Virus record (IMG/VR): IMGVR_UViG_3300045988_098479
Direction: 5' to 3' (one strand)
Length of the DNA: 36,690 nucleotides
Source: a virus
Part shown: one piece after another, positions 3,808 through 29,041 of the stretch
Layout of the letters: each line of letters starts with the position of its first letter
Numbering within the stretch: position 1 is the first letter of the stretch
Notes under the pieces: generated by a model
Told to the model about the DNA's origin: nothing
Database searches by the model: none
What the model saw: the letters and a program-made list of their open reading frames with translations, nothing else
Program-made: the position numbers and the translations under genes

Positions 3808-3811
3808 CGCC

Positions 3812-4402
3812 ATGGGTTTCTTCAGGGAGGCCCGCGACGCCTTCGTGACCGCCTGGCACGAGGAGTTCGACGGCAAGGACATCAAGAAGGAGCTCTGCGA
3901 CGCGATTATCGACGGCGCGAGCGGCGGCTCGGGGATATACGAGAACGGCCGCGAGGTCAGCAACGCCGAGATGGAGAGGCGGCGCCGGGCGCACGACGAG
4001 CAGAAGGCCGCATATATGCGCGAGCAGGTGGAGACGCGCAGGGCGCTCGCGGACGCCGGCGCCAACGTCGAGGCCATCGACGCGGCCCGCGTGCTGGCGG
4101 ACGCCCGCGACATAGCCGACGGCCTGTGCCGTGCCCGCATCGGGGAGGCCGCGGAGCCGCGCGAGCCGATCATCGACTGGAGGCCGCTCACGAAGGCCGG
4201 GAAGGCGCCGAAGTGCGTGGCCCGCGCCTCGGCGGTATGGGACCGCCCGAACGGCGACAGCGTGATAGTCCACATGGGTTACACGGCGGACGCGCGGCCC
4301 TACACGGCGGACGTCCACATATGGACGGCCGGCGAGCGCTACTCGTACAAGATCAGGACCGTCGGCGGCGAGCTCGCCGTCGCGGGCGAGGGGCCGGCAT
4401 AG
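3812..4402 (+). CDS. Hypothetical protein of the lysogeny operon (196 aa)
   Basis: ATG 3812 has GAGAGG upstream and lies 5 nt after the repressor stop, on the same strand as cI and int. No motif recognised. Confidence 0.65.
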   Translation: MGFFREARDAFVTAWHEEFDGKDIKKELCDAIIDGASGGSGIYENGREVSNAEMERRRRAHDEQKAAYMREQVETRRALADAGANVEAIDAARVLADARDIADGLCRARIGEAAEPREPIIDWRPLTKAGKAPKCVARASAVWDRPNGDSVIVHMGYTADARPYTADVHIWTAGERYSYKIRTVGGELAVAGEGPA

Positions 4403-4487: not shown

Positions 4488-5678
4488 ATGCCCGGGCAAC
4501 CCATAGGAGACATTATGGCACAGTCCGAACGCAAGCGAAGGCGGGCCGGCTCGTACCGCGAGGTCAGGCCGGGCGTCTGGGAGGTGAGGGCGAGCAAGGG
4601 GCGTCGCGCCGACGGCGGGCGCCGCACGGTTTCCCGCACGGTCGAGGGCAGCGAGCTCGACGCCGAGATAGAGGCCGCGCGCCTCGTGGCGGAGCTGGGC
4701 GGCGCGGCGAACCTCGGCGAGTCACTCACGCTCGAGCAGTTCTACTGGGGGATATTCAGGAAGTCGGACAGCAACCGGGGGAAGCCCCGCAGCGCGGCGA
4801 CGCTCAGGCAGTACGACTCCCAGATGGTGCGCAACGTCCTCCCCGCCATCGGGCACATACCGCTGTCCAAGCTCACGCACGGCGACATCAAGGCCGCGGT
4901 GCTGGCGTCGACGGCGCCGGCGCTCACCAAGCGGACGCTGCGCGCAGTGCTGCTGTCGGCATACGACGACGAGCTCATGGACGAGCGGCCGTTCCGGCGG
5001 CGCATAACCACGCCGCAGCGCAGGAAGCCGCAGCGCGCCCCGTGGACGGCGCAGGAGGCGGTAGCGGCGCTCGGGGCCATGAGGGGCCGCCCGCTGGAGG
5101 CGTACCTGATACTCGGCCTGTCGGGACTGCGCATGGAGGAGTCGCTCGGCATCTCCCCCGCCGACATCGTGCCCCAGGCGACCTACGACCTCGTGACCGG
5201 CACGGAGGTCCGCACGCTCACGCTCGTGGTCAGGCGGAAGTACACCGACGCCGACGGCCTGGTGGACGAGGCGAAGAACGAGGCGTCCGTGCGCGAGCGC
5301 CCCGCGATCGTGGCCGGGCGCGACCGGCTGCTCGCCATCGTCGCGGCGACGCGCCCCGACCCGGGCGACCCGACGGCCGTCGACGCCTGGCGCCGCTCGC
5401 GCCTCGTGCCCCTGCGCGGCGACACGCTCTACAAGAGGTGGAAGTCGGAGCTCGCGGCGCTGGGTCTGCGCTTCATCCCGCCGGACATGCTCCGGCACAC
5501 GTCCGAGACGCTGATGCAGGCCGCGGGCCTGCCCGACACGGTCACCTCGCGCTTCCACGGCCACGCGGAGCTCAAGACCGACTACGGCAACTACATGCGC
5601 CCCGGCGCGGCGACCATGGAGGACGCGGCGAGGAAAGTGCATAGACTGCTGTCGGGAGAGGACCCCAGTGGGGCGTAG
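4488..5678 (+). CDS. int: Tyrosine integrase (phage integrase family)
   Basis: Motifs LSGLRMEE (Arg), MLRHTSET (Arg) and FHGHAELKTDYGNY (His, Tyr) are present, together with an N-terminal SAM-like/arm-binding region. The gene is adjacent to attP. ATG 4515 (AGGAGA plus 5 nt) may be the true start. Confidence 0.85.
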   Translation: MPGQPIGDIMAQSERKRRRAGSYREVRPGVWEVRASKGRRADGGRRTVSRTVEGSELDAEIEAARLVAELGGAANLGESLTLEQFYWGIFRKSDSNRGKPRSAATLRQYDSQMVRNVLPAIGHIPLSKLTHGDIKAAVLASTAPALTKRTLRAVLLSAYDDELMDERPFRRRITTPQRRKPQRAPWTAQEAVAALGAMRGRPLEAYLILGLSGLRMEESLGISPADIVPQATYDLVTGTEVRTLTLVVRRKYTDADGLVDEAKNEASVRERPAIVAGRDRLLAIVAATRPDPGDPTAVDAWRRSRLVPLRGDTLYKRWKSELAALGLRFIPPDMLRHTSETLMQAAGLPDTVTSRFHGHAELKTDYGNYMRPGAATMEDAARKVHRLLSGEDPSGA

Positions 5679-6051: not shown

Positions 6052-7236
6052 CTAGCCCCTCTGGGCGTACGCGGCGCCCGATGCGGTGCCGACGGCGATC
6101 CAGCGCGTGTAGCCGGAATAGCTGGTATAGCGTCCCCATACGTAGCCGCCTGATGTCACGAACGTGCCATCGAGGTTGACGGTCTGGCCGCGATGGTAGC
6201 TGGCGACAACGCTGTAGCCGGTGCCCGCGCCGGAGCGAACGTTGAGCGTGTTCACCACGATGCGGTAGCGGCCGGCGGAACGGCCGGTGGATGCGGGGCG
6301 CGCCTGAGACGCGGCGGCGCCAACGCGAACGAGGTAGTCGTTCGGATCGTAGCCGCCGGTGGGCTTGCCGACAGCGACATAGCGGGTATAGCCGGAATAG
6401 CTGGTATATCGTCCCCAAACATAACCGTTCGAGACGCAATACCAATCGTCGAGCGTCACGGTCTGACCGTAGCCGTAGCCAGCCACAACAGCGCCGGACA
6501 TAGACGGCGCGGTACGCACGTTCAGGCGACTTGCGTTGCAGCGGTAGGTGCCGCCGAAGCCGGAGCCGGTCTTTGCAGTGGTGGTGGAAGATGCCACGGT
6601 GCCACCGTTTCCATCAGTCGGCGCGATAGGCGCGACATAGCCGCTGCCGAGGTAAGCTGCCACCGCCTGCTTGAACTCGTACCAAGTCTTGCCATAGGCG
6701 CGGAAATAACCGTTTGGGTCTGTATGGTCGGAACCGCCCCAGCGTTGGGCTGCTTCGTAGTGGCTTAGCAGGCGGGACGTATCCCAGCCATGGGCGCGAA
6801 GCTCATCGCCAGCCCACTTCACAGCTTCATTCCACTGCTTTGCGAAATCGGAAGCATTGGTGGCGTGGGCAAGCTCGATACCGATAGTGGCGTAGTTGCC
6901 ATTGCCAACATGCCAGCACAAGCGATTCTCGGGCACCGTGTTGTACACGGTGGAGCCGTCCAGCTCCATGACGTGATGCACGGCGTAGGTATCGTTGCGC
7001 GACCAAAGCAACGTGTGGTTGTAGGCAGACGCGCCGGGGTTCGCTGTCTCATGGATAACTAGGTAGCTCGCATTGAGATAGCCATGACCGTTGCTCACGT
7101 ACTTGTTCACGCTCTGGTAGGCTTCGGCGCTGAGCGGGGCGGCAAGCGCCGCCACAAGGGCGAGGACAACGGCGAAAACGCTGCGCATCGGCAGCTTGCG
7201 CTTAGCCTCGGCACTAGTCTCCGTCATGGTCGCCAC
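6052..7236 (-). CDS. Endolysin: signal peptide, N-acetylmuramoyl-L-alanine amidase (Amidase_2/PGRP-like), two SH3b-like repeats
   Basis: The N-terminus [23 protein letters not shown] looks like a Sec signal with an AxA site. The amidase block runs [11 protein letters not shown]...[17 protein letters not shown]...HTDP. The C-terminus has two 60-aa repeats. The start could instead be Met4 or Met17. Confidence 0.85.
6088..6546 (-). repeat. Two SH3b-like cell-wall-binding modules (coding tandem repeat)
   Basis: Residues 231-290 and 324-383 of the endolysin share YR...LNVR......G.VVA.Y..GQTV.LD......[15 protein letters not shown](Y/W)(V/I)AVG. Shared DNA stretches lie around 6108-6146 and 6383-6425. 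Confidence 0.85.
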
Positions 7237-13723: not shown

Positions 13724-14529
13724 GCCGGCTCCCCCTCCTCCTCGTAGAGCGTCAGGTCGAACCCGAAGCTGTTGTCCCACGAGACCTCGCAGGTGCCGGC
13801 CGGCACGCGCTCGAAGATGTACTCGCCCGAGCCGGCGCCGCTGCCTCGGTGCGCCTTGCCGAAGGCGTCGCGGACGTCGCCGTCTGCGGAGACCACGGAG
13901 ACGGTGCGCCGCAGCGGGTCGACCTCCATGTAGCCGCCGTCCGGCACCGATACGTCGACCTGGTACAGGTTCTCGCCGAGCCGGACCGCGGGATTGACCG
14001 CCGGCCCGTAGACGATGAACCGGGCGGGGCTGCCGGAATGCCCCGGGTTGCGCGCGTACCGCTTCGGCGGGGTCGCCCCGAGGTCATACGGGAGGTCATG
14101 CGGTAGGTCGAGGAACTCGTACCCGGACGAGCCCATGACGGGCGTGAACTCCGTCGTGACGCCCCTGCGCCACAGGCCGTCGAGCAGCACGACGGTGATC
14201 TTCGCGGTGAAGAGCCCGTCCCGCACCCCGTCGACCTTCGACGCGAGGACGAAGCAGCGCTGGAACCACAACCCGACCCTCAGCGTCCCGGGCGTGTTGC
14301 CCGAGACGTCGAGGTCCGCGCAGCGGCGGAACTCGTCGGCCAGCGCCATGTCGGCGAAGACCGCCCTGAACGAGGCCTTGCGGGCGCCGCGCGAGACGGT
14401 CGACAGCGCACGGTACCCGATCTTGTAGTCCCATTCGCGGCTGAAGAGGTCGTTCGGCGTGCCGACGTAGATGCCGGAATTGAGCGGGATGACCGCCCCC
14501 GCGCCCGATTCATATTCGATATCAGGCAT
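13714..14529 (-). CDS. Distal tail protein (Dit)
   Basis: ATG 14529 overlaps the TMP stop by 8 nt. The product is 271 aa and the gene sits in the canonical position directly after the tape measure gene. Confidence 0.7.
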   Translation of the reverse strand: MPDIEYESGAGAVIPLNSGIYVGTPNDLFSREWDYKIGYRALSTVSRGARKASFRAVFADMALADEFRRCADLDVSGNTPGTLRVGLWFQRCFVLASKVDGVRDGLFTAKITVVLLDGLWRRGVTTEFTPVMGSSGYEFLDLPHDLPYDLGATPPKRYARNPGHSGSPARFIVYGPAVNPAVRLGENLYQVDVSVPDGGYMEVDPLRRTVSVVSADGDVRDAFGKAHRGSGAGSGEYIFERVPAGTCEVSWDNSFGFDLTLYEEEGEPAWS

Positions 14530-16753
14530 ACGCGACCGCCTTCCTCGCCCTGCGCCCGAACTCCGACTCGCCCATGACGGGCGTGAACTCCGCGATGATG
14601 GAGGGCAGGTTCTCGGCCAGCCAGCCGATAACGGCCGACGCGCCGCCGTCCGCGACAACGCCCTCCCCGGTGCCGGAAATGGTCCGGTCGCCGTAACGCG
14701 GGCCGTCGGCCCTGACCGTCGCATCGAACGCCGCGGCGCGCTCGACCTTCCCGACGGCGGACTCCATTGACTTCACGGGCTCGTCCGCCGTGTCGTCGAT
14801 GCCGAGGGCCGCGCCCTGCATCACGTAGCCGAATATCTTGCGGAACACGCGCGAGGGCGAGTGGATGCCGAGCAGGTTCTTGGCTGCGTCGATGGCGCCG
14901 CCGACCACGCCGGTTATCTTGTTGACGACCACGCCGGCCGCGCCGCTGATTCCGTTTGCGATGCCCTGCACGATATTGCGGCCGATCGACACCACGCGGC
15001 CCGGCAAGCTAAGGAAGGCGGACTCGATGTTCGACGCGATGCGTAGCGCCGCGCCCTTCACTGCACCGACTGCGCCCGAGATGGCGCCCTGCAGGTTGTA
15101 CATGGCAACCTTGCCGAGGTTCGACAGCGTCGACGGCAGGTTCTGGATGGCGTCGCGGATGGCGGACACGATGTTGGTGCCGCACGTGCTGACGAAGCCG
15201 GCCATGCCGGCGATGCCGTTGCCCAGGAGCGTGATGGCGTTGCGGCCGAGGCTTATCCAGTCGAGAGCTGACCATGCCGCGAGTATTGCCGAGAAGATGG
15301 CCGGGATGTTCGCGATGAGCGTCGGTATCGCCTGCACGATGCCGAGCGCCAGCGTCACGATTGCCTGGATGCCGGCGCCCAGCAGCGTCGGCGCGTTGTC
15401 GTTGATCGCGTCGGCGAGGTTCTGCACGATGACCGGGGCCTGCTCGATGATGGTCGGCAGGCTGTCGGCGATACCCTGCGCCAGGCCGACTATGAGGTTC
15501 GCCGCGCCCTCGGCAAGAACGCCCGCGTTCTCGGCTATGGACTCTGAGAGGCCGGTGAGAATCTGCAGGCCGCTCTCCATGATGGAGGGAAGGTTCTCGG
15601 ACAGGTAGCCGCCGAGTTGGCTCATGATGTCGGCCGCCGCGCCGGAGAGGAACGACAGGCCGTTCACGATACCGTCGTAGAGCACCGGTCCGACCTGCGC
15701 GCCTATCTCGTCCAACCCGCCGAAGGCGCCCGAGAGCGCCGACATGGCGCTGTCGGCGATGGACATGAAGGCCTCGCCGGCGACCGGCGCCAGCGTCGCT
15801 ATGACCCCGGGGAGCTGCTCGACGGCCGTGGACACGATGGTCGCCACGCGCGGCACGATGTTGGAGGCCGCCGTCTCGACCGACTCGACCAGCTCGGTCG
15901 TGAGCTTGCCCATGTCGGCGTCGTCCTTGCCGAGCTCCGTCACCCAGTTCTCCCACGCGGCCTTGGCCATGTTGCAGGAGCCCTCGATGGTCGTCGCGGC
16001 CTCACGCGAGGTCGTGCCGGCGATCTGCATCTGCTCCTGCATCGTATGGATGGCGAGCACGATGTTGTCGAAGGACAGGCTCGACTCGTCCACGGCGGAG
16101 TTGACCGCGTGCGCGTCCGAGATGAGGCGCTGCATCTCCTCCTTGGTGCCGCCGTATCCCAGCTTCAAGTTGTCGAGCATGGTGTAGTTCTGTTTCGCAA
16201 ATCCCTGGTACGCGTTCTGGAGGTCCTCCATCGCCGTGCCGAAGGTGTTCGCGTTGTCGCTCATGTCGACCATTGCCGTGTCGGCGTACTCGGCGGCCTT
16301 GACCGTGTCGCCGCCGAGCGATTTGACGAGCGAGGCGGAGAAGCCCGTCACCTGCTCCATGTACCGGTTGGCGCTCAGGCCGGCCGTTATGTAGGCGCGG
16401 TCGGCATTTGCCAGCACCGTCGTCTGTGCCTGCTCGAGCTGCTGCCACTTGCCGGAGCACTGCTCGACGGTCTGGCCGGTCATGGCGGCGTAGTCCTCTA
16501 GGGACTTGCCCATGTTGCCGAAAATCTTCTGGATGCCGCCGACGTTCTGCTCGTACGCGGCGTAGGCGTTCATGCTCATGCCGGTCACCGCCGCGACGCC
16601 GGCAGCCACCGCCGTTACTCCGGCCGCGACAAGCGATGCGGCCGCGGCCGCCGCCTTGCCGAGCTTTCCCTCGATGCCGCCGGCGATGCCGTCGACCTTG
16701 CCGGATGCCTGGTCGTCGACGCCGATCTTGACCAAGAGATCGAGAAGGTCCAT
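14522..16753 (-). CDS. Tape measure protein
   Basis: The product is 743 aa, Ala/Gly/Ile-rich with repetitive helical and hydrophobic segments. Its ATG lies directly after the stop of the GT chaperone extension. Confidence 0.9.
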   Translation of the reverse strand: MDLLDLLVKIGVDDQASGKVDGIAGGIEGKLGKAAAAAASLVAAGVTAVAAGVAAVTGMSMNAYAAYEQNVGGIQKIFGNMGKSLEDYAAMTGQTVEQCSGKWQQLEQAQTTVLANADRAYITAGLSANRYMEQVTGFSASLVKSLGGDTVKAAEYADTAMVDMSDNANTFGTAMEDLQNAYQGFAKQNYTMLDNLKLGYGGTKEEMQRLISDAHAVNSAVDESSLSFDNIVLAIHTMQEQMQIAGTTSREAATTIEGSCNMAKAAWENWVTELGKDDADMGKLTTELVESVETAASNIVPRVATIVSTAVEQLPGVIATLAPVAGEAFMSIADSAMSALSGAFGGLDEIGAQVGPVLYDGIVNGLSFLSGAAADIMSQLGGYLSENLPSIMESGLQILTGLSESIAENAGVLAEGAANLIVGLAQGIADSLPTIIEQAPVIVQNLADAINDNAPTLLGAGIQAIVTLALGIVQAIPTLIANIPAIFSAILAAWSALDWISLGRNAITLLGNGIAGMAGFVSTCGTNIVSAIRDAIQNLPSTLSNLGKVAMYNLQGAISGAVGAVKGAALRIASNIESAFLSLPGRVVSIGRNIVQGIANGISGAAGVVVNKITGVVGGAIDAAKNLLGIHSPSRVFRKIFGYVMQGAALGIDDTADEPVKSMESAVGKVERAAAFDATVRADGPRYGDRTISGTGEGVVADGGASAVIGWLAENLPSIIAEFTPVMGESEFGRRARKAVAYA

Positions 16754-19176: not shown

Positions 19177-20061
19177 CTATCGCTTGTCGGTGATGACGGC
19201 GGCAAGGCTCTTGTCGAGGGTCTTGACGCCGCAGAGCATGTCGATGGAAACGGTGTCGGTCTTGGTCTTCTGGTCGTAGCCCTGCACGACGCGCAGGCCG
19301 AAGCCGTCGTAGGAGGTGGAGTACGCCTTGGGGGCGCCGAGCGGCATCTCGAGCTGGCGGGTCACGAGCGCGAAGGCGTTCTTGTGGAACGCGATGGACG
19401 GCGTGTAGTTGGCAGTCTCTGCCGTGGTCTTCTGCACGTTCTGGTCGCAGTAGAAGTCGAGGCCGTACTTGCGGCCCAGCGACGCCTCCTTGAGGGCGGT
19501 GCCGTTGTCGCCGACGGCGGAGGCGTTGACGAACAGGTCGGTGTTGAGCAGGTCGGCCTCGGCCTGGGAGCCGTAGACGAAGCGGCGCTCCGTGGAGGGC
19601 GCCTTGGCGTCCACGAGGAACTTTCGGGCGGCGATGATGTCCGCCACGGCGAGGGCGCCCTTGGTGTGGTCGACGCGGTTGTCGGTGACGTCCTTCTCGA
19701 GCGCGAGCAGGTAGCCGTCGATCTTGTCGGCGAAGGCCCGCATCGCCGGGACGAGGAACTGCGCGGAGAAGTCGACGATGTTCATCGTCAGATCCTTGGA
19801 CGTGACGGAGAACGTCACATCGAGCAGCTTGTCCATCTTGACGGCGACCTTGTCCTCGGTGGCGTCCTGCACCTCGACCTCGGTGGTGAACTCCTTGGCC
19901 TCGAAGGTGGCGGGCTTGCGGATGGTGATGGTGTCGCCCACGCCCGCGACGAACTCGGAGGAGTAGTCGCGGTGGACGAGGTTGGCCATGACGGCGTTGG
20001 TGCGCAGAACGTCCAGCGCCTCGTTGGCGATGATGTTGGGTGTAAGGATGGTGTTCGGCAT
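19177..20061 (-). CDS. Major capsid protein
   Basis: The product is 294 aa. The gene follows the scaffold gene, and its composition and length are typical of small HK97-fold/P22-coat-like capsid proteins. Confidence 0.8.
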   Translation of the reverse strand: MPNTILTPNIIANEALDVLRTNAVMANLVHRDYSSEFVAGVGDTITIRKPATFEAKEFTTEVEVQDATEDKVAVKMDKLLDVTFSVTSKDLTMNIVDFSAQFLVPAMRAFADKIDGYLLALEKDVTDNRVDHTKGALAVADIIAARKFLVDAKAPSTERRFVYGSQAEADLLNTDLFVNASAVGDNGTALKEASLGRKYGLDFYCDQNVQKTTAETANYTPSIAFHKNAFALVTRQLEMPLGAPKAYSTSYDGFGLRVVQGYDQKTKTDTVSIDMLCGVKTLDKSLAAVITDKR

Positions 20062-20743: not shown

Positions 20744-21217
20744 CTAGCCGCCCAGGTGCTTGCGGAAGATTGAGCGGTATGTGGATTCGTGGTCCTCGGC
20801 CGCCGGCTTGAGGTAGGGCTGCGGCTTCTGGTGCCTCGTTCCCAGTTCGACATATGGCGCGTACTCGACGTTCGTGCCGATGATGGCGCACTTGCCGTCC
20901 TCGTCGACGATATGGGTGATGGAGTTGCGCAACCGTCCCGTGTCGACCGGGCAGGCGCGCTTGGCGTAGCCCTCCGCGACGAGCCCGACCTCCTCCAGCG
21001 CGGCGACGAGCGCCCGGTCGATGGCGTTGGCGATGGCCTCGCGGTTGTCGGCGCGCACCTCGACAAGCCCGGAGATGTCTGAGGCGGTCAGGCCCTTGGC
21101 GCTACCGCGCGTGAAGCCCTTCTCCCTCATCCCACTGACGGTGTCGCCGTTTCGGTCGGTCCACGTGTCGTTCTTGGCGCTCCACTTCTCCTTGCCGACC
21201 CTTCGCGGCGCGGCCAT
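20744..21217 (-). CDS. HK97 gp10-family protein
   Basis: The segment CPVDTGRLRNSITHIVDEDG...GTNVEYAPYVELGTRHQKPQPYLKPA matches the gp10-family signature. ATG 21217 overlaps the upstream stop. Confidence 0.75.
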   Translation of the reverse strand: MAAPRRVGKEKWSAKNDTWTDRNGDTVSGMREKGFTRGSAKGLTASDISGLVEVRADNREAIANAIDRALVAALEEVGLVAEGYAKRACPVDTGRLRNSITHIVDEDGKCAIIGTNVEYAPYVELGTRHQKPQPYLKPAAEDHESTYRSIFRKHLGG

Positions 21218-21438
21218 CAGTCCAGCACCTCCGTGCCGTAGCCCACGCGGCCGGACACGTCCACCTCGCACGCCTCGACAGCCTGCACCGGCACGCCGGC
21301 GCACCCGAGCGTGCAGCCGTCGTCGGGCTCGACCTCGTCGCCGCGCTGCATGCAGATGTAGGTATCCGGGAACGTGAAGCCGAAACCGAGCCTCACGGCG
21401 CAGTCGCCGCAGCTCGCACATGTGAAAAGCTCTTTCAT
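21217..21438 (-). CDS. Small Cys-rich protein (73 aa)
   Basis: The product begins MKELFTCASCGDCAVRLGFGFTFPDTYICMQRGDEVEPDDGCTLGCAG... The start is uncertain, either 21438 or 21480. Confidence 0.5.
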   Translation of the reverse strand: MKELFTCASCGDCAVRLGFGFTFPDTYICMQRGDEVEPDDGCTLGCAGVPVQAVEACEVDVSGRVGYGTEVLD

Positions 21439-21487
21439 GCCTGTCCAATCTCTCTGCGGGCAGTGTCGCGGCACGGTCACGCGGCAT

Positions 21488-21512
21488 GAAAAAGCCCCGC
21501 CGAAGCGGGGCT
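21488..21512 (-). terminator. Rho-independent terminator after the immunity-like gene
   Basis: The minus strand reads AGCCCCGC-TTCG-GCGGGGCT followed by TTTTTC. Confidence 0.75.
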
Positions 21513-21521
21513 GGCTGTGGC

Positions 21522-21788
21522 CTATTTGACTTTTATCTCGTTGGCCTTGTCCATCTCAAGCTCGATAGCAGACGGGCTCTCGCCTCTGAGGAAAAACGGA
21601 ATCGGGAAGAAGTCAATCCTCCCCGTTTCCTTGTCGATGGCGTACGGAGTGTCGCCCGGGGCCATCTTTCCATCGAAACCGAAACCGACGAACCAATGGT
21701 ATTTGCCCTCGTATGCGCACACCGGGCCGTATCCGTCTACGGCCTCCTCTTCCAGAATCGGCTTTATGGCCTCTTCCAATGTGAGCAT
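21522..21788 (-). CDS. Immunity-protein-like small protein (YrhB/Imm35-like pattern), 88 aa
   Basis: The segment YEGKYHWFVGFGFDGKMAPGDTPYAIDKETGRIDFFPIP resembles, from memory only, polymorphic-toxin immunity proteins. AAGAGG lies upstream. GC content is lower than the surroundings. Confidence 0.55.
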   Translation of the reverse strand: MLTLEEAIKPILEEEAVDGYGPVCAYEGKYHWFVGFGFDGKMAPGDTPYAIDKETGRIDFFPIPFFLRGESPSAIELEMDKANEIKVK

Positions 21789-21841
21789 GTCAACCTCTTG
21801 TCGTCAGGCACTCGTCGATCTTGGTGATACGCCGTTGTACG

Positions 21842-22024
21842 CTAGAGACAGATTTCGGGGTCCTGCCTCTCGAGTTTTGGAACGCCAGAGTCGAGCGACT
21901 CCTTGAGGGCTGCATAGACCTCATCGACATTGCCGTACCATATCGGCTCATAGCCGAAACGTTCCTCGAACTTGGCCGCGAGCTTGTCGACCTGCTCCCA
22001 TGTATGCAATTCGGCAACCATCAC
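21842..22024 (-). CDS. Small acidic protein (59-60 aa), possible immunity/adaptor
   Basis: Its start (GTG 22024 or ATG 22021) overlaps the MuF-fusion stop. It lies in the AT-richer region. Confidence 0.55.
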   Translation of the reverse strand: MMVAELHTWEQVDKLAAKFEERFGYEPIWYGNVDEVYAALKESLDSGVPKLERQDPEICL

Positions 22025-24015
22025 AGCCCCTCCTTCATCATCTCGTCAAATATTTTACTCGATTCCGGTAGGTATTTGCGCAGGACGGCGAGAGATTCCG
22101 GGTTCGCGGTGCTTGCGCTGAAGAACTCGGCGAAGCCCTCTTGCGCAAGCCTTGCCAGCTGGTAGTCCTCGGACGCTCCCTTCGGCCGCCAATAACTCTT
22201 GCTGTGGCCCCATCCATCGTTGCACTTGTTCAGCGTTGCTCCGCCGAAAAGGTCGGAAAGGTCGGCCTTTTCGGCGTGGCTCATCTCCCCTATCTCGGAG
22301 GCGACGGAGCTATATGTGGCAGCCTTCGTGTGCTTGAGGCCCGAGAGCGCCTCGGCCACCTTGTCAGGATGTCTCCTTAGGTAGTCGGCGTGCCATTCCA
22401 TGAGGTAGCCGTTCGACTCGAGCCATCCGATGTCCTTTGACTTGACTGCCCGTTTGAGCCCGTCGCGCATCTCCTTGTGCCTTGCGTCAATGTAGGCTTC
22501 GACCTCGCTCTTTATGGTCTTGGCGAACACGCCGCCGCCGTACGTCCTCGAGATGTCCGCGTGCAGGCTGTCGATCATGTGCCCGAACTCATGGAACCAG
22601 GTCGTTCCTTGGGGTCTCAATCCATCTTTCGAAAACACTCTTTCAAGGTTGAGCCTCACGCCACCGTCCGTTGGGCTGTAGTGGGCGGTCCCGCCCCATC
22701 CGCCGTTCAGCAAAACGAAATCCCGCTCATGCTTCAGGTAAACGCTACGGGCAGCCTTGTCCGAACGCTTGAGAATGCCTTTCACCGCATCCCTTTGATC
22801 CCCATTGAGGCGCGAGTAGACGGAAGCAGACATATCAGGCTTGCCCGCGATGCGCCGAATTCGGGCCAGCGCCGCGTCCAGCACCTTCTGCTGGTCGCCG
22901 GCGCTCATCTTGCGGAACGAGCCGGACGGTATGCCGTACTCCTTGAGCTGCTCAGTGAGCCTCTTCCTCGCCTCGGTCGGCGACACGCCCGCCACGTCCA
23001 GCTTGCGTTTGGTGCCGGGCATGCCCATGAACTCGGAGATGGTGCGGTTCGCGGGTTTGGTGCCGGTGACGGCGGGCTTGCCCGCCTTCCATTCCTCGTA
23101 GGTCATGCCCTCGGGCAGCTTGCTCCACCTCTTGCCGTCGCTGTAGTCGACGCCCTCGACGGCCGCGATGAGCGTGCAGCGGCAGTTGCACGTCTCGGCA
23201 TACGGCGCCTCGGGGTCGCCCGGGTAGCGGCACCCGTTGCTGAACTTCTCCCCGACCTCCACCTTCTCGCCGTCGAGCTTCCTGTGGCTCGAGCGCGTGC
23301 GCCCGTCGAGCGTCGCCAGCCACTCCTGCTGCACCTTGATGCCGAGCCCCTTGGCCCTCTTGTAGCTGTCGACGCGCCCGGCGTTCTCCGCCGCCGTCGT
23401 CGAGGTCCGCGCCAGGCGCACCGCAGCCGCGCGGTTCGCCCCCGTCACGTCCTGGATGCGTCTGGCTATCTTGGGTATCGACTCGCCGAGCAGCACGCCC
23501 TGCGTGATCTGGTTGGCGATGAGCCGTCGGTTCCATGCCATGTCCTTGGCGACGTTGACGGACGGCTTGGGCAGGTAGCTGTCGTGGTCGGTGAGCAGGC
23601 GCTGCACGGTCGACGCGTCCTGCAGCGCGTAGGACGTGTCCCAGCCAACGGCGCTCTCGACCTGCCACGTGCCGTAGTTGTAGTTCTCGGCGTAGACCTC
23701 GGGCAGCCTGCCCTCGATGGCGGCGGCAGCGACGACGTTCGCGCGCGTCATGGCCTCGGCGCACTGCTTGAGGACGATTCGGTAGCGCCTGCCCGCCGCG
23801 ATCTTCCCGCTTCGCCAGGACCTGTATTGCGCCTTGGTGATCTCGCCGGCCTCGAGACGCCCGCGCATCTTCTCGTCGTCGACCTCGAACTGCGCAAGAT
23901 AGCGCTTGAGGTTGGCGTAGGCGGTCTTGCCCGCCTCGCCGTACACTCCAGCCACCTCGCGCTCGAACGCCCGAATCTCGGCGTCTGAGAAGTCGTGAGC
24001 GCTATCCCCTGCCAT
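22021..24015 (-). CDS. MuF / SPP1 gp7-like head morphogenesis protein fused to a C-terminal HExxH zincin-like domain
   Basis: The MuF core reads RLARTSTTAAENAGRVDSY...LATLDGRTRSSHRKLDGE...CNCRC. HEFGH lies at 22579-22593 and QEGFAEFF lies downstream. ATG 24015 (GGAGG plus 7 nt) is preferred over 24042. Confidence 0.8.
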   Translation of the reverse strand: MAGDSAHDFSDAEIRAFEREVAGVYGEAGKTAYANLKRYLAQFEVDDEKMRGRLEAGEITKAQYRSWRSGKIAAGRRYRIVLKQCAEAMTRANVVAAAAIEGRLPEVYAENYNYGTWQVESAVGWDTSYALQDASTVQRLLTDHDSYLPKPSVNVAKDMAWNRRLIANQITQGVLLGESIPKIARRIQDVTGANRAAAVRLARTSTTAAENAGRVDSYKRAKGLGIKVQQEWLATLDGRTRSSHRKLDGEKVEVGEKFSNGCRYPGDPEAPYAETCNCRCTLIAAVEGVDYSDGKRWSKLPEGMTYEEWKAGKPAVTGTKPANRTISEFMGMPGTKRKLDVAGVSPTEARKRLTEQLKEYGIPSGSFRKMSAGDQQKVLDAALARIRRIAGKPDMSASVYSRLNGDQRDAVKGILKRSDKAARSVYLKHERDFVLLNGGWGGTAHYSPTDGGVRLNLERVFSKDGLRPQGTTWFHEFGHMIDSLHADISRTYGGGVFAKTIKSEVEAYIDARHKEMRDGLKRAVKSKDIGWLESNGYLMEWHADYLRRHPDKVAEALSGLKHTKAATYSSVASEIGEMSHAEKADLSDLFGGATLNKCNDGWGHSKSYWRPKGASEDYQLARLAQEGFAEFFSASTANPESLAVLRKYLPESSKIFDEMMKEGL

Positions 24016-24059
24016 GCGCCGCCTCCAATCGTCGGCACGCATGGTCGCCCGCGCATAAC

Positions 24060-24093: not shown

Positions 24094-24315
24094 CTACTCG
24101 CCTTCCTGCTCGGTCGGCTCCTCCGCGCGGTCAAGCGCGTCGTAGTACGCGGCCGCGAGCTCCTCGACCTCGGCGATGTCGGCCTCGTCGAAAAGGCCGC
24201 TGTCCAGGTGCGCATAGGCCTTGTCAAGCCAGTACGCCACGTCGCGGCCAGCTTGGATCTCGCGCTTGATGCTGCGCAACGTCAGGTCGTGGCGGGCCTT
24301 GCTCTTAACTGCCAT
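24094..24315 (-). CDS. Hypothetical acidic protein (73 aa)
   Basis: ATG 24315 has TAGGAGA upstream, which overlaps the preceding stop. Confidence 0.6.
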   Translation of the reverse strand: MAVKSKARHDLTLRSIKREIQAGRDVAYWLDKAYAHLDSGLFDEADIAEVEELAAAYYDALDRAEEPTEQEGE

Positions 24316-24324
24316 GCTTGTCTC

Positions 24325-25587
24325 CTAACTGATAGATGCGATTGCCGCTTCCAGATTCGCGACGACGATGTTCACATCCCTCTGATACTTCAGCTTGACC
24401 CACGCACCGTCACCAGCCTGCACCACAGTGTCGGGGCCGTAAGCGGTGAGGGCTTTGTAGGCGGCGATTTCGGCAGGGGTGAGCGGGGTTTCGATGGGGG
24501 TGGCGAGACAGTAAAACATGCTCGCGTCTGGGCGCGCTTTGAGCCATTCAGAAAAGGCATCGACCGAGTCAACGCCCGAACCTGCCTTAAACTGCAGCGT
24601 TACGCTTTGAACCCACACATAGCATCTGCAAGCTTCTTTCATTTCGATGTCATAAGCGACACCGTCGAAAACAGCATACTGGCACAAGGAAAATCCTTGC
24701 GTTGTGCCGTATTGCGATGCAGGAGCGTCGGAAATAAAAGTGTCATTTTTGTTTGTCGGTGTGAGCTCATATCGCCACTGCAAGGCGTCCAGTTTCAGCT
24801 GATTCACCCTCTGCACCTTCACACCCCTTTCCAAGTCCACCTCGTCGCACACCCACTGCTGGCCCTGCGAGTCAGTGTAGTTGCCGCCAGAGGTGACAGG
24901 GATGCCGGGTAAGCCGTTGGGAGTGGGGAGCGTGAGGAGCTGTTCGCGATAGGGTTCATAATCGGGAGATGACGCGTCCCATGTCAGGCACACGTTTTCA
25001 CGGTTAGTCTCCGTTACCAGAAGATCCTGGAACTTTACTAAGTCCGCTTGAAACGTCGCATGGCATTCAGTCTTATTTGCATCAATACCAAACCAGTATT
25101 TATTGTCATTCTCGTCAAAGAATCTGATGTTCCCGCCTTGCGAGACTGTACCTTCCTTGAACACTAAAGTTATCGGCGTGTTTTTCTCGACATAGCACTC
25201 GACAATGTCTTTATATTTCAGGTTGGACGGCAGCCGATTTTTCCCCGTCACCTTCACCGCTACGCTCCCGCCATCGCCTGCGCTCACGATAGACACATGG
25301 TTATCCGGGCTGGGCGTGCCATCCTGTGTACTCTTACCGTACACTGTCAGGCCGCACAAGGGCGCAGGGAAAGCGTCGTCAACGTGGACGAAAGCGTCCT
25401 CGGCCGTGCCCTTTAGCGTGTTCTCCGCCACAGGATACAGCTTGGCTTCGGTGGCCTTGACGTCGGCGATGGCCTTGGTAGCCGCCTTGCTGGCGGCGTC
25501 GGCACGCTCGACCGCGTCGCTCACGCTCTTCTCCGCCTCGGCCTTGAGGTCGGTCCAGCCCTGCTCGCGCTCGCCCTCGGCCTCCAC
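24325..25587 (-). CDS. Fibre-like protein, C-terminal fragment (frame +1 relative to 25607..26410)
   Basis: This frame is open from the poly-G tract onward. It has a coiled-coil start and then a beta-rich, AT-richer domain. The ORF-track start GTG 25587 is probably not a real start. Confidence 0.6.
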   Translation of the reverse strand: MEAEGEREQGWTDLKAEAEKSVSDAVERADAASKAATKAIADVKATEAKLYPVAENTLKGTAEDAFVHVDDAFPAPLCGLTVYGKSTQDGTPSPDNHVSIVSAGDGGSVAVKVTGKNRLPSNLKYKDIVECYVEKNTPITLVFKEGTVSQGGNIRFFDENDNKYWFGIDANKTECHATFQADLVKFQDLLVTETNRENVCLTWDASSPDYEPYREQLLTLPTPNGLPGIPVTSGGNYTDSQGQQWVCDEVDLERGVKVQRVNQLKLDALQWRYELTPTNKNDTFISDAPASQYGTTQGFSLCQYAVFDGVAYDIEMKEACRCYVWVQSVTLQFKAGSGVDSVDAFSEWLKARPDASMFYCLATPIETPLTPAEIAAYKALTAYGPDTVVQAGDGAWVKLKYQRDVNIVVANLEAAIASIS

Positions 25588-25606
25588 ACGTGCCTTCTCA
25601 GCCGTA

Positions 25607-26410
25607 TCACGCTCCGTCTCGGCGGTCTTGCGCCCCCCCCTCGTTCTCGCCGCGCACGCGCTCGGCGGTCTGGCACTTGCCCTCGGCCTCGTTGTAGGCG
25701 GCGTTGCGGTCCGTCTCCGCCTTCGTGTACGCCTTGTCGCGGGTGCGCTCGGCGTCCGTATATGACTCGGCGCGCGCCTGCTGCGCGTCGCCGAAGGCCT
25801 TGGCCTGCTCGGTGAGCATGGCCTTGTACTCCTCGTTTGTCTTGCCGATCTCGGCCGCCGCGTCCGTTGCGGGCTTCTTGAGCTCCGCCACCTGCTCGTC
25901 GGTGAGGTCGCTGTACCTCAGCGCGTCGCCCTTCGGTACGCCGACGACAAGCACGTTGCCCTCCATCGCCGCCGTGGCATCCGAGCCAGAGGCGAGCGTC
26001 GTGGCGCGCGCCCCCTTGACCTCGGCGGCGACAGCCCTGTCGCGCGCGGCCTCCGCCGCCTTCTGCGCGGCCTTGGCCTCGTCTCGCGCCGTCTCCGCGT
26101 CCTTGATGGTGCGCTGGTCGCTCGGCTCGTAGACGTACTCGGCGGGCTTGGCTCGCCTCTTCACGTCCCAGAGCGCCTCGATGCGCGTGCGCCCGCCGTA
26201 GGCCTCGTCCGTGATGTAGGCCCATGCGTACACGCGCCCGGCCGCCTGGAGCAGCTCGTCGGGAATCTTCGCCTTGTCTCCGGCCACCTCGACCGTGTAG
26301 CACGTCCCCGTGGTCGACTTGGCGAAATGCACCTGCTCGCAGCCGGCAGCCTCGACCTCGCGCCCCGTGTCCCACTGCCACAGGTCGCCATCCATGATGT
26401 CCAGCGTCAT
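25607..26410 (-). CDS. Fibre-like protein, N-terminal fragment (BppU_N-like domain plus coiled coil)
   Basis: ATG 26410 overlaps the portal stop as ATGA. An N-terminal beta domain is followed by Ala/Glu/Lys/Arg-rich heptad-like sequence. The frame terminates 8 codons after the G8 tract. Confidence 0.65.
   Translation of the reverse strand: MTLDIMDGDLWQWDTGREVEAAGCEQVHFAKSTTGTCYTVEVAGDKAKIPDELLQAAGRVYAWAYITDEAYGGRTRIEALWDVKRRAKPAEYVYEPSDQRTIKDAETARDEAKAAQKAAEAARDRAVAAEVKGARATTLASGSDATAAMEGNVLVVGVPKGDALRYSDLTDEQVAELKKPATDAAAEIGKTNEEYKAMLTEQAKAFGDAQQARAESYTDAERTRDKAYTKAETDRNAAYNEAEGKCQTAERVRGENEGGAQDRRDGA
25633..25640 (-). repeat. Poly-G(8) tract (C8 on the plus strand) at the frame break of the fibre-like gene
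   Basis: Read directly from the sequence. With G7 or G10 the ORFs 25607..26410 and 24325..25587 fuse into a single ORF of about 690 aa. Confidence 0.9.
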
Positions 26411-27858
26411 TCCTCGCCCTCCTCATCCTCGTCATCCTCGTCGCCTGCACCCGCACCGCCGGCGTTTGCCGCGAGCGCAGGCGGCAGCGCGGCCATGCGC
26501 TCCTCCTGCTCCCGCTGCTTGCGCTCCAAAATCTTCGCCCTCTCGTCGGGCGTGATGTTCGGCAGCTTTCGCAGGATCGTCTCGTCGTCCAGATACTCGG
26601 CCTCCAGGCACACGGTCTCGACCTGCTCTTTGGTGTTGCTGATGCGAGTGTGCGTGAACACGGGCGTGTCCTCGATGCCCTGCAATGCGAGGATGTCCAT
26701 GATGCCCTCGCGGATGTGGCGCTCGAACTCGGCGGCCTCCTCGTCCATCGGCTGGTATGCCGCGTCGATATGGTCGTTGGTCGCCCCCGCCGCGATGGTG
26801 TGGACGTCCAGCGCGCCGAAGTCCTCGTAGATGTCGGCCTTGATCTGCGCTAGCGTCTCCTTGCGGCCCTCGACGGGCACCTCCTGCGTGTACGGCGTCA
26901 CGGACTGCCCCTGCTCGGCGTCGACCTCTGCCACGTGCGTCAGCTTGAGCTTCGCCCTCCACAGGTCGAGGTCCCTGTCGTCCATGCCGCCGGCTCCGTT
27001 GATGAGCCAGTAGATCTGCGCGCAGTCGCGCGTGTCGTTCACCAGGCCGCTCTTGATGAGGTCGTAGGCGTCGATGCTCTCGCGCATGCCGACGAGCGTG
27101 CTCTGGTGCGCATCGCTGCCCCAGACCGCCACGATGGGCAGGCGGGAGTAGTTCTCCGCATCGACGGCCAGCTTCATCCCGTCCGCCGGTATCTCCTGAT
27201 ACGTGACCTTGTAAGCACGCTTGGCCTCGGCCACCTCGAAGTCGAAGCCGCTGCCGCCCGACACCATCTCCGTGTAGCCGTCCTGCTCGTAGAGGGTCGC
27301 GTGCCACGGGTGGTCGGAGTCGAGCCGCCAGAACCTCACGCCGGCGTATAGCGCCCCCGAGTACTCATCCCACACCGGACAGAACTCGTCGGCGGTGAAA
27401 ACGTCGATGTGGTCGAGGTTCCAGAACGGGAATGACACACCGTGGATGAGCGCCTTGAGCCCCATCTCCATGACGTCGTCGTCGAAGCGGTCGCCAAGCC
27501 CCTCCTTGGTCGTGTCCTTGCCGCCCGCCGAGACGTCCACGAAGCTCACGCCCTTACCGAGCGAGTACGTGCAGCGCTGGACATTTAGGCGCTTGAACAG
27601 GTTACTCGCCAGCCTCAACTTCGAGGCCGTGAAGTCCTCGGCCTCGGCACCGGAGCACGAGTAGATCTTCTGCACGAAACGGTTGATCGTGACGTTGTGC
27701 TGGCGGTAGTACTCGTTCGCGGTGACGGCGTTGCGGTATATCTCGCTCGACATGTGCCGCTCGATGGCATCTGCCGCGAACGCCGTCGCCGACGCCGCCG
27801 CCTTGAGGTCGCCATCGGTCACCAAAGGCCCCTTAGACAAGCCGCTACCTCCCTCCAA
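26407..27858 (-). CDS. Portal protein (SPP1 gp6-like)
   Basis: The product is about 480 aa and the gene follows terL. The acidic C-terminal tail reads GDEDDEDEEGEE. The start is uncertain: TTG 27858, or TTG 27840 after GGAGGGAGG. Confidence 0.85.
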   Translation of the reverse strand: MEGGSGLSKGPLVTDGDLKAAASATAFAADAIERHMSSEIYRNAVTANEYYRQHNVTINRFVQKIYSCSGAEAEDFTASKLRLASNLFKRLNVQRCTYSLGKGVSFVDVSAGGKDTTKEGLGDRFDDDVMEMGLKALIHGVSFPFWNLDHIDVFTADEFCPVWDEYSGALYAGVRFWRLDSDHPWHATLYEQDGYTEMVSGGSGFDFEVAEAKRAYKVTYQEIPADGMKLAVDAENYSRLPIVAVWGSDAHQSTLVGMRESIDAYDLIKSGLVNDTRDCAQIYWLINGAGGMDDRDLDLWRAKLKLTHVAEVDAEQGQSVTPYTQEVPVEGRKETLAQIKADIYEDFGALDVHTIAAGATNDHIDAAYQPMDEEAAEFERHIREGIMDILALQGIEDTPVFTHTRISNTKEQVETVCLEAEYLDDETILRKLPNITPDERAKILERKQREQEERMAALPPALAANAGGAGAGDEDDEDEEGEE

Positions 27859-29041
27859 AGAATGGGTTTACCTGCTCTTTCGCAGGCTTGTACATGCGCA
27901 GTGTTGCCACGCCGTAACGGAGCGCGTCGCAGCTGTGGTCCTCGACCTTAACGGGTTTGTCGCCGTCCGCCTTGGCGTCCCAGCAGTAGCCGCCGAGCTC
28001 ACCTATCAGCCCCGCGCAGGCGTCAGAGATGCGCACCGTGCCGTTGCCCAGGCACACCCCCGTCTCTCGTATGCCGTCCGCGACGTCGTTGCGCCCCTTC
28101 TTGGTCTTGAACCCAGCCTGCCGCATCGCGGCGATGAAGCTCGTGGCGCTCGGGTCGATGATGAACGTGGGCGGCTTGCTCAGCCCGCCCACGAAGTCGG
28201 CCATGTCGGCCACGTAGTCGGCGTCCGTCTTCTGGTGCCCCGTGTCGCGGCCCGAGTAGCGGTACTCGTCCACCACGTGCCACACCTTGCCGTCAAACGC
28301 CCACAGCAGCGCCGCGAAGGCGTTCTGAGTGCCGTAGTCGCAAGACACCGCGTACTTGACGGCGCCGCCCGTATACCGGCTCTCGAGTGCGCCCTCCCAC
28401 CCGGGGTAGACCAGGCCCTCGGCCAGCGTCCACTTGCCCAAGATGTAGCGGTCGTAGTACACGCCGCTGCCGTAGTCCTTGATGAGGGCCTCGATGACAT
28501 CCGGTGCCAGCGCACCGTCCCAGATCGTGTAGTCCTGCCTGTAGATGTCGCTGTCGCCGTCGAGGAACCGCTTGAACCAGTGGTTGGGGCTGTCGGGGTT
28601 ACAGGTGCCGTCGAAGCGGCTGTGCTCGCAGCGCAGGCGGCTCTTGAGCATCTGGAACACGTCTTCGCTCCACGTGGCGACCTCGTCGCCGTAGACCCAC
28701 TCGAACGTGGCGCCCTGAATCTTGGATACGCTTGTCTTCTTGTCCGCCCCGAGGCAGTAGACCTTGCGTCCGAATATCTGGGCCGTGTTGTCCCGCCCGA
28801 TCTGGCTGACGACGTCTTCGCTGTAGAGCGAGCGCATCGGCTCGAGGATGTTGCGCTCGAGCGTCGAGCGGGTGTTCCCGATCATCACCGCCAGCCCCTC
28901 GCCCCTCATGGCGAGAAGCCTCTGCGGTATGGTCACGGCTATGTCGACGTAGCTCTTGCCCGAGCCCGTCGCCCCGCACTTCACGTTGTAGCGGTGCGTG
29001 CAGTTGGCGAGGTACTCGCGCTGCATCCTCGTGAGCGGCAT
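27845..29041 (-). CDS. terL: Terminase large subunit (PBSX-type)
   Basis: A Walker A motif (KCGATGSGKS) lies near the N-terminus. The product is 398 aa and the gene precedes the portal gene. Confidence 0.9.
   Translation of the reverse strand: MPLTRMQREYLANCTHRYNVKCGATGSGKSYVDIAVTIPQRLLAMRGEGLAVMIGNTRSTLERNILEPMRSLYSEDVVSQIGRDNTAQIFGRKVYCLGADKKTSVSKIQGATFEWVYGDEVATWSEDVFQMLKSRLRCEHSRFDGTCNPDSPNHWFKRFLDGDSDIYRQDYTIWDGALAPDVIEALIKDYGSGVYYDRYILGKWTLAEGLVYPGWEGALESRYTGGAVKYAVSCDYGTQNAFAALLWAFDGKVWHVVDEYRYSGRDTGHQKTDADYVADMADFVGGLSKPPTFIIDPSATSFIAAMRQAGFKTKKGRNDVADGIRETGVCLGNGTVRISDACAGLIGELGGYCWDAKADGDKPVKVEDHSCDALRYGVATLRMYKPAKEQVNPFFGGR

Follow-up and report, generated by a model that had tools for sequence, protein, structure and literature searches.

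We have analysed a stretch of viral DNA of 36,690 nucleotides (nt; IMG/VR virus record IMGVR_UViG_3300045988_098479), which is called here, in its full length, the window, with a focus on a gene that encodes a MuF (SPP1 gp7-like) minor head protein with a long C-terminal extension, and on the two small open reading frames (ORFs) and the hairpin that follow it. Comparison with related loci identifies the locus as a MuF-family polymorphic toxin/effector cassette, in which the C-terminus of the head protein behaves as a swappable toxin-like module. The C-terminal domain (CT), which carries a HExxH motif, belongs to a family unannotated in current libraries and, judged by its conserved residues and its predicted structure, is very probably a metallopeptidase of the gluzincin type; the first small ORF, of 59 amino acids (aa), is identified by its co-occurrence with CT as the cognate partner of the domain and is predicted to be its inhibitor or immunity protein, while the second, of 88 aa, is identified by its neighbours in other genomes as an orphan left from a displaced cassette, and not as a further partner of the HExxH domain. 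The system is of a known kind, which the first-pass annotation, a reading made from the letters and the ORFs of the DNA, had named correctly.

Exchange of the MuF C-terminus

The MuF protein of the window is 91-95% identical, over residues 10-392, to four other proteins of our comparison (P0098, P0117, P0093 and P0105), the similarity being lost past the sequence QQKVLDAAL that ends a conserved linker. Among the 30 proteins that share this junction, in the general form QQKVLDxAL, at least seven unrelated C-terminal families come after it, including a Gln_amidase/Tox-PL1 family (the C-terminus of P0105 matches Pfam PF15644, Gln_amidase, with 43 bits against a cut-off of 24.1), a family that is weakly JAB-like, and a family with a different HExxH motif (HEYYGH). 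Since a shared N-terminal part and linker of 91-95% identity are joined to at least seven unrelated C-termini, this comparison identifies the MuF C-terminus as a part of the protein that is exchanged through recombination at the QQKVLDxAL junction. The small ORF or ORFs located 3' of the MuF gene change with the C-terminus: the HExxH domain is followed by the 59-aa ORF, Gln_amidase by the 88-aa ORF, the HEYYGH family by ORFs of 63 and 113 aa, the JAB-like family by one of 80 aa, and two other families by ORFs of 65 aa and 70 aa, respectively. The first-pass annotation had proposed a MuF protein with a swappable C-terminal toxin-like module of zincin-type signature, and both halves of the proposal are borne out, by the variety of C-termini at the junction and by the invariant HExxH...E residues of the family, described below.

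The limits of the exchanged segment can be seen in the DNA. When the window is aligned with a phage of the Gln_amidase type (L001), an identity of ~92% is found at positions 24109-22852 and again at 21819-21213; the first homology block stops at 22852, and the drop in the G+C content (GC) of the window coincides with the non-homologous segment between the two aligned blocks. The GC is 67.7% in the N-terminal part of the MuF gene, 57.6% in the cassette (21820-22852), 54.7% at 21513-21819 and 65.3% downstream; the AT-richer region that the first-pass annotation had noticed is therefore real, and its count of 45% GC for positions 22021-22080 is exact.

At its 3' edge, the variable region ends with a terminator-like hairpin, which had also been recognised in the first-pass annotation. 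The stem and loop (21493-21512, minus strand) comprise 8 base pairs, 7 of which are G-C, and a UUCG loop, and are followed by TTTTT; the calculated free energy is -26.5 kcal/mol (z = -3.6), and 0/200 shuffled sequences fold as well. The same element, CCCCGC-N4/5-GCGGGG(C)TTTT, with a fixed stem and a variable loop, is found 3' of the last small ORF in ~60 related loci; because the stem is kept whichever C-terminus is present, the conservation pattern marks the hairpin as the conserved 3' boundary of the variable region. Its role may be transcription termination, mRNA stabilisation, or that of a recombination arm.

Mosaicism is also seen within the HExxH domain itself, at positions 22693-23072 of the window compared with locus L003. 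The MuF protein of L003 (P0007) has no 68-aa linker, which is also missing from P0005, and the first third of its domain has diverged, the rest being ~92% identical in DNA; P0003 has the reverse of this pattern, which suggests recombination among alleles of the HExxH domain.

The HExxH domain and the two small genes

In searches with CT (aa 393-673), no Pfam match was found at E ≤ 10, no NCBIfam match and no PDB sequence match. The extent of the family has been explored with a profile (A1) of nine CT relatives, searched against 1.84 billion representative proteins: 1336 clusters were matched at E ≤ 1e-3 and 599 at E ≤ 1e-10, nearly all of them at the extreme C-terminus of proteins of 500-940 aa. 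A Pfam scan of 76 long members has shown that 71 have MuF-like N-termini (51 Phage_Mu_F, 12 Phage_min_cap2 and 8 VG15). Copies of CT at 98-99% identity occur in contigs of many Collinsella genomes, and more distant copies occur in Slackia, Ellagibacter, Adlercreutzia and other Eggerthellaceae.

The two motifs on which the first-pass annotation had based its zincin assignment, HEFGH (aa 484-488, 22579-22593) and QEGFAEFF (aa 634-641, 22120-22143), are located where it had placed them, and their key residues are invariant in the family: over 91 distant members, the H, E and H of HExxH, D491, D597, H613 and E635 do not vary, and conservation reaches 90% or more at Y617, W618 and E639; the H, E, H and D of HExxHxxD are invariant in the alignment of the 76 long members, as well. 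In the AlphaFold2 (AF2) model of CT (predicted local distance difference test score, pLDDT, 86; predicted TM-score, pTM, 0.84), N-terminal helices are followed by three short strands, the HExxH helix, a helical insert of ~130 residues, and the helix of E635 and E639; the HExxH residues lie within predicted helix 81-94 of the domain, and E635 and E639 within predicted helix 226-247. Domain residues 203-221, i.e. the region of the conserved loop at aa 602-620, have pLDDT values below 50; this loop may serve as a flap to the active site or as a second site of binding.

This order of elements resembles that of the zincin-like metallopeptidase domains found in polyvalent proteins of phages and plasmids (Iyer et al. 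2017, PMC5512222), where the HExxH motif is located on one helix and the glutamate on a later helix with a variable insert between them, a three-stranded sheet and an N-terminal helix stand ahead, and fusion to MuF is found; one phage clade of these domains also has an aspartate three residues past HExxH, as CT does. The likeness has its limits, because CT, unlike the zincins compared, matches no Pfam zincin hidden Markov model (HMM) at E ≤ 10, has an insert of ~130 residues and an extra invariant C/D/W/H/Y/W loop, and does not show the conserved histidine of strand 2. In a Foldseek search of the CT model against the PDB, there were 0 matches at E ≤ 0.001. The best interpretable fold matches, which are not significant, were the gluzincins Zmp1/PPEP-1 (probability 0.72; target-normalised TM-score, TMt, 0.48) and anthrax lethal factor (LF; probability 0.23), with E ~1 and TM-scores of 0.36-0.48; against viral models, Foldseek matched other MuF minor capsid proteins only. 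A PDB profile search with the 76-member alignment has given insignificant matches only (E = 0.4-8), located at the motif and including oligopeptidase A, and among the 76 relatives there was one weak match to Peptidase_M90 and one to M91 (~1e-3); no above-threshold profile match links CT to the named families M34 ATLF, M90, M91, Pfam Tox-MPTase or MPTase-PolyVal. For the zincin-like nature that had been proposed for the extension, the order of the structural elements fits, while no match to a family or a fold is significant.

The same results have to be weighed for the alternative that CT is not a peptidase, i.e. that the HExxH motif and the glutamate form a structural metal site or serve other hydrolytic chemistry, in a locus that would still be variable MuF cargo. 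The lack of a significant match to any peptidase family or structure agrees with this alternative, as do the large helical insert and the extra invariant Cys/Asp/His/Tyr loop, which are atypical of the named zincin families searched; nevertheless, we consider it very unlikely, as more than 90 divergent members all have the full set of HExxH and Glu residues, the order of secondary structure fits the zincin core (PMC5512222), and the only non-trivial fold or HMM hints (Zmp1/PPEP-1, LF, M90, M91, and oligopeptidase A at the motif) are all zincins.

The two small ORFs reported in the first-pass annotation, at 21842-22024 and 21522-21788, are both conserved as proteins in many genomes. The first of them, the partner gene, is likely to start at the ATG at 22021 rather than at the GTG at 22024: this ATG overlaps the MuF stop codon (TGATG), with AGGAGG located 7 nt upstream, within the last MuF codons. 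The protein is acidic (isoelectric point 4.4), is 95% identical in L003, and keeps 54% identity in a phage of the Slackia type, in which CT has 62% identity; furthermore, a homologous ORF of 53-67 aa abuts or overlaps the MuF stop in every GTDB HExxH locus examined, even at 32-35% CT identity. The partner is also present in four distant representatives of the family, where an HMM recognises it with E-values between 1.6e-6 and 3e-14; two of these representatives have Phage_min_cap2 N-termini, and one has an intein. The homology of the partner thus extends across loci with different N-terminal head-protein families. The pairing has been quantified in 113 IMG/VR loci with related MuF N-termini, one of which ended too near CT to judge: the partner is present in 36 loci that have CT and missing in 1, and it is present in 0 of the loci that do not have CT and missing in 75 (Fisher's exact p = 1.3e-28). 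The sole locus with CT and without the partner is L088, where the match covers only ~100 positions of the CT profile and the HExxH domain may be truncated or decayed. While a word-indexed search with the 60-aa protein returned close relatives only, the wider family was recovered through genomic context and a custom HMM. Its alignment has three conserved elements: F-G/D...P, L/I-x-x-S/C-L/I-x-x-G-x-P, and an acidic, then hydrophobic, extreme C-terminus.

Two further loci bear partner-family genes in unusual settings. In locus L040 (2501-5269), the 922-aa protein P0162 has an intein-splicing domain inserted in MuF, and the HExxH C-terminus and the small partner gene are retained. Locus L078 (2000-4000; Collinsella metagenome-assembled genome, DBFAQQ010000032.1) is a decayed prophage, with a frameshifted Gln_amidase-MuF gene, an intact 87-aa gene and, on the opposite strand, two intact partner-family genes of ~55 aa (3725-3904 and 3385-3567), a HExxH domain being absent from their vicinity. 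The locus has the appearance of a small group of orphaned immunity-type genes. The small genes have outlived the toxin genes in this one locus, and a search for more orphan partner genes has recovered only loci that were already known.

A different role for the HExxH domain would be that of a morphogenetic or self-processing protease, which trims MuF, the scaffold or the capsid, or releases itself after ejection, with the ~55-aa protein acting as an assembly chaperone or as a trans-acting pro-peptide. Such a role would explain why the family is found almost only on MuF-like head proteins (71/76 sampled; 1336 clusters) and why the partner is strictly linked and translationally coupled; in addition, no separate prohead protease gene has been seen from the portal to the capsid genes, and autoprocessing roles have been proposed for the zincin domains of packaged polyvalent proteins (PMC5512222). 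We regard it as unlikely, because MuF N-termini of 91-95% identity and flanks of ~92% identity occur in phages that have unrelated C-termini or none, and the domain is therefore not essential for head assembly; moreover, the base composition of the cassette is foreign, and in the decayed locus L078 (a single case) the partner-family genes are intact without a HExxH domain, where a chaperone would be useless. In the first-pass annotation, the case of an extension that is a conserved part of MuF without associated small genes had been named as the one that would count against a toxin-like module: the first part of this case is echoed by a widespread domain that occurs almost only on MuF-like proteins, whereas the rest is contradicted by the dedicated small gene and by the near-identical phages that have no such domain. 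On these two grounds, the extension is not a structural part of MuF, and we have rejected CT as an essential structural or maturation part of the head protein.

The 88-aa gene has different neighbours. It is located directly 3' of the Gln_amidase-MuF gene in L001 and L002, and 3' of this gene in 34/34 complete GTDB Collinsella loci, at 93-100% identity and without the 59-aa gene, while it is absent from the HExxH loci outside the lineage of the window (C. aerofaciens-type, Slackia-type, Ellagibacter, Adlercreutzia and distant phages). In the window, the 30 nt upstream of its start (21790-21819) correspond to the exact C-terminal end of the toxin P0105 (...LIDECLTTRG), and the alignment of positions 21819-21213 with L001 5711-6319 (92%) begins 30 nt ahead of the Gln_amidase-MuF stop. 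The arrangement is, thus, that of an orphan module: an intact immunity-type gene behind a fragment of the toxin gene that is its full-length neighbour elsewhere. It is because of this constant neighbour (34/34) and of the 30-nt remnant that we identify the 88-aa gene as an orphan. In the simplest history, the HExxH domain and its partner gene would have replaced the Gln_amidase domain, from the QQKVLDxAL junction to 30 nt ahead of the old stop, and the old 88-aa partner gene would have been left in place.

Accounts in which both small ORFs serve the HExxH domain have to be considered, as the first-pass annotation had taken both for immunity-like genes of CT; this holds for the 59/60-aa ORF, which co-varies with the HExxH domain, and fails for the 88-aa ORF, which belongs with the Gln_amidase C-terminus. 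Two immunity proteins for one domain, as in the arrangements of Apk2 and Bxa, would be in line with two ORFs that are small, acidic, adjacent and AT-richer and that are intact in all loci of the lineage of the window, and MuF loci with two immunity genes do exist (PMC11699363). The 34/34 linkage to Gln_amidase in loci without the 59-aa gene, the remnant immediately upstream of the 88-aa gene, and the absence of this gene from the other HExxH lineages make such an arrangement scarcely tenable, and on these grounds the two ORFs have been rejected as partners of one domain.

The sequence pattern by which the first-pass annotation had likened the 88-aa protein to immunity proteins finds no counterpart among Pfam or NCBIfam models or PDB folds, despite a confident AF2 model (pLDDT 91); the immunity-like label is kept here from the genomic context. 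A homologue of the 88-aa protein that is extended at its C-terminus (127 aa) occurs in locus L042 (1708-3884), where its gene overlaps the end of a gene for a 599-aa, repeat-rich surface protein with a signal peptide and an LAATG anchor.

Genome setting and coordinates

The features of the locus are listed in Table 1. The first-pass annotation had described a MuF ORF with an SPP1 gp7-type core and a long extension, starting at 24015, and this description agrees with our results: aa 175-292 match Pfam PF04233 (Phage_Mu_F; 2.5e-19, 70.5 bits against a cut-off of 29.6), the ORF matches NCBIfam TIGR01641 (SPP1 gp7; 49.5 bits against a cut-off of 39.65), and many PHROG head families match the same region, while no Pfam, PHROG or NCBIfam match passes ~aa 346. 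The true start of MuF is probably M10, at 24015, because the homologues begin at the equivalent of M10. The role of the MuF core, i.e. head targeting via the portal, is deduced from SPP1 gp7, as summarised in PMC5576092.

Table 1. Coordinates of the MuF cassette and its surroundings in the window.
Feature	Position	Strand	Basis or remark
MuF (SPP1 gp7-like) minor head protein with C-terminal HExxH domain	22021..24042	-	673 aa from first ATG (ORF list)
MuF core domain, aa 175-292	23167..23520	-	Pfam, PHROG and NCBIfam matches
Conserved linker of 68 aa (aa 325-392), ending in QQKVLDAAL	22867..23070	-	C-termini diverge after it
CT, aa 393-673 (~280 aa), predicted zincin-like metallopeptidase	22024..22866	-	conserved motifs, AF2 model
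HEFGHMID, aa 484-491: two predicted zinc ligands, predicted catalytic Glu, Asp three after motif	22570..22593	-	family alignments
Conserved loop, aa 602-620 (C607, D609, W611, H613, Y617, W618)	22183..22239	-	invariant residues; pLDDT <50
EGFAE, aa 635-639; E635 is the predicted third zinc ligand	22126..22140	-	family conservation, predicted helix
Partner gene, 59 aa from ATG 22021 or 60 aa from GTG 22024	21842..22024	-	overlap with MuF stop, co-occurrence with CT
Remnant of displaced Tox-PL1/Gln_amidase 3' end (IDECLTTRG and stop)	21790..21819	-	alignment to L001 and to the end of P0105
Acidic protein of 88 aa, immunity-like, orphan	21522..21788	-	constant neighbour of Tox-PL1/Gln_amidase C-terminus elsewhere
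GC-rich hairpin and T-run (terminator-like)	21488..21512	-	scan and fold; 3' edge of variable cassette

The window is identified as a temperate siphovirus of Collinsella, with the MuF cassette inside the head-morphogenesis module. Pfam and PHROG scans have placed on the minus strand the genes of RecT, TerL (27845-29041), the portal (26407-27858), MuF, an HK97-gp10-like protein, the scaffold, the major capsid protein (19177-20061), the tape measure protein (14522-16753), a minor tail protein and an endolysin (6052-7236), and on the plus strand an integrase (4488-5678); relatives of the locus sit within contigs of Collinsella genomes, which indicates a prophage, i.e. temperate, setting. Rfam and tRNA scans of the window have given no matches, and a search of a collection of phage GenBank records has given three weak matches only, none of them to a cultured phage with a named bacterial host.

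A second variable slot is located in the interval between the portal and MuF genes (24094-26410, minus strand), where the window has genes of 267, 420 and 73 aa without Pfam matches; the 420-aa gene is clearly AT-richer (GC 47-56%) and has a weak match to a PHROG family named 'virion structural protein'. Among close relatives, L001 and L003 carry other genes in this slot (545/541, 343 and 113 aa), and in L004, L005 and L007 the slot is empty, MuF being located directly after the portal. On the other side of the cassette, after the hairpin and before the gp10-like gene (21217-21438, minus strand), a 73-aa Cys-rich protein is encoded (MKELFTCASCGDCAV..., with CxxCxDC and more cysteines), which is kept in nearly all Collinsella-type relatives irrespective of the MuF C-terminus. 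The 247-aa ORF of the mechanical list at 20744-21487 (minus strand) is too long, its N-terminal part being an Arg-rich stretch read from high-GC DNA; the HK97-gp10-like gene most likely begins at 21217 (MAAPRRVGKEKW..., 157 aa), as it does in relatives.

Proposed role and relation to known systems

In the mechanism that we propose, the MuF part would act like SPP1 gp7 and dock the fusion protein to the portal, so that a few copies would enter the capsid and leave it together with the DNA; the zincin domain would then cleave a target protein in the recipient cell, while in the producing cell or the lysogen the 59-aa partner would bind the protease 1:1 and keep it inactive, possibly with its conserved acidic-hydrophobic C-terminal tail in the active-site cleft. 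The retained 88-aa protein would shield lysogens from the Tox-PL1-MuF phages that are common in Collinsella. Taken jointly, these roles, i.e. MuF bringing the fusion into the capsid, the zincin as an ejected effector or toxin, the partner as a stoichiometric inhibitor and the 88-aa protein as retained immunity, make up an account that we hold to be moderately probable.

Several points weigh against this account. No PDB fold is matched by CT at E ≤ 0.001, and no zincin HMM matches the CT protein; zinc binding, proteolysis, toxicity, neutralisation and packaging are here predictions from sequence, structural models and analogy. The partner is translationally coupled within the late operon and no sigma-70-like promoter has been found near the hairpin or the small genes, so that expression in the lysogen is only presumed. 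The argument from the orphan cluster comes from a single locus (L078), and, as a mild caveat, the homologue of the 88-aa protein mentioned above (P0314, 64% identical) is located beside a sortase-anchored surface protein with no toxin adjacent. Finally, CT is almost confined to MuF-like proteins, whereas most MuF toxin domains are shared with other toxin delivery systems (PMC5576092), and this difference leaves room for a phage-specific role or one at the infection stage. It is thus possible, if on the unlikely side, that the HExxH domain and the ~55-aa partner constitute an old, phage-head-specific module of two genes, consisting of a virion-delivered protease that acts at DNA entry and an inhibitor that is encoded in trans; such a protease could cleave, for example, a host defence protein or an envelope protein, and the acidic-hydrophobic tail of the inhibitor could plug the active site.

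Polymorphic MuF toxins of temperate phages, with adjacent immunity genes, have been described by Jamet et al. 2017 (PMC5576092), who found a metallopeptidase domain in 20% of 191 MuF toxins and a small ORF after 89% of them, and fusions of Tox-PL1 with MuF by Zhang et al. 2012 (PMC3482391). Experiments have demonstrated immunity for two MuF toxins, Apk2 and Bxa, and the Bxa study suggested that MuF clusters might contain additional immunity genes that are not cognate (PMC11699363). In this cited literature, the enzymatic types that have been studied experimentally are the (p)ppApp synthetase Apk2 and the ADP-ribosyltransferase Bxa, and no member with a peptidase domain. The locus of the window shares with these toxins the N-terminal MuF domain, the location in the head module of a temperate phage, the variable C-terminus of an enzymatic type, the small downstream ORF, and the occurrence of unrelated C-termini on near-identical N-termini, metallopeptidase and Tox-PL1 fusions being among those described. 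It differs from them in three respects: no toxin or peptidase model of Pfam recognises CT, which appears limited to MuF-like proteins, the ~55-aa partner is a single conserved family, and the locus adds a remnant of a displaced toxin and an orphan immunity-like gene.

In CDI (contact-dependent growth inhibition; CdiA-CT/CdiI) and Rhs loci, an incoming toxin-immunity cassette displaces the old one, leaving an orphan immunity gene and a 3' fragment of the toxin gene; in CdiA, the junction motif ahead of the variable C-terminus is VENN. The locus of the window resembles such orphan modules in its conserved junction, here QQKVLDxAL, and in the old immunity gene and the old toxin 3' end that are kept downstream. 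In contrast to CDI and Rhs loci, the carrier is a phage head protein and not a secreted filament or an Rhs cage, the old toxin survives as 30 nt only, and the downstream boundary is a conserved hairpin.

What is new here is a very large, unannotated peptidase-like family with a conserved family of small partners, which may overlap with the 20% of metallopeptidases of PMC5576092; new are also the QQKVLDxAL junction, the conserved hairpin boundary, and a clear orphan-immunity scar in a MuF locus. As MuF toxins are widespread in the prophages of gut bacteria, the locus offers a concrete pair of a peptidase-like domain and its partner, and the exact recombination scar indicates that MuF loci, in the manner of CDI and Rhs loci, swap toxin-immunity cassettes while retaining old immunity genes. 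If the reading of a phage-head-specific module is true, it would establish new families of a peptidase and of an inhibitor, with over 1000 sequence clusters, as well as a new class of packaged anti-host effectors. In Collinsella, a common genus of the human gut, such prophages would shape the resistance of strains to phage-borne effectors.

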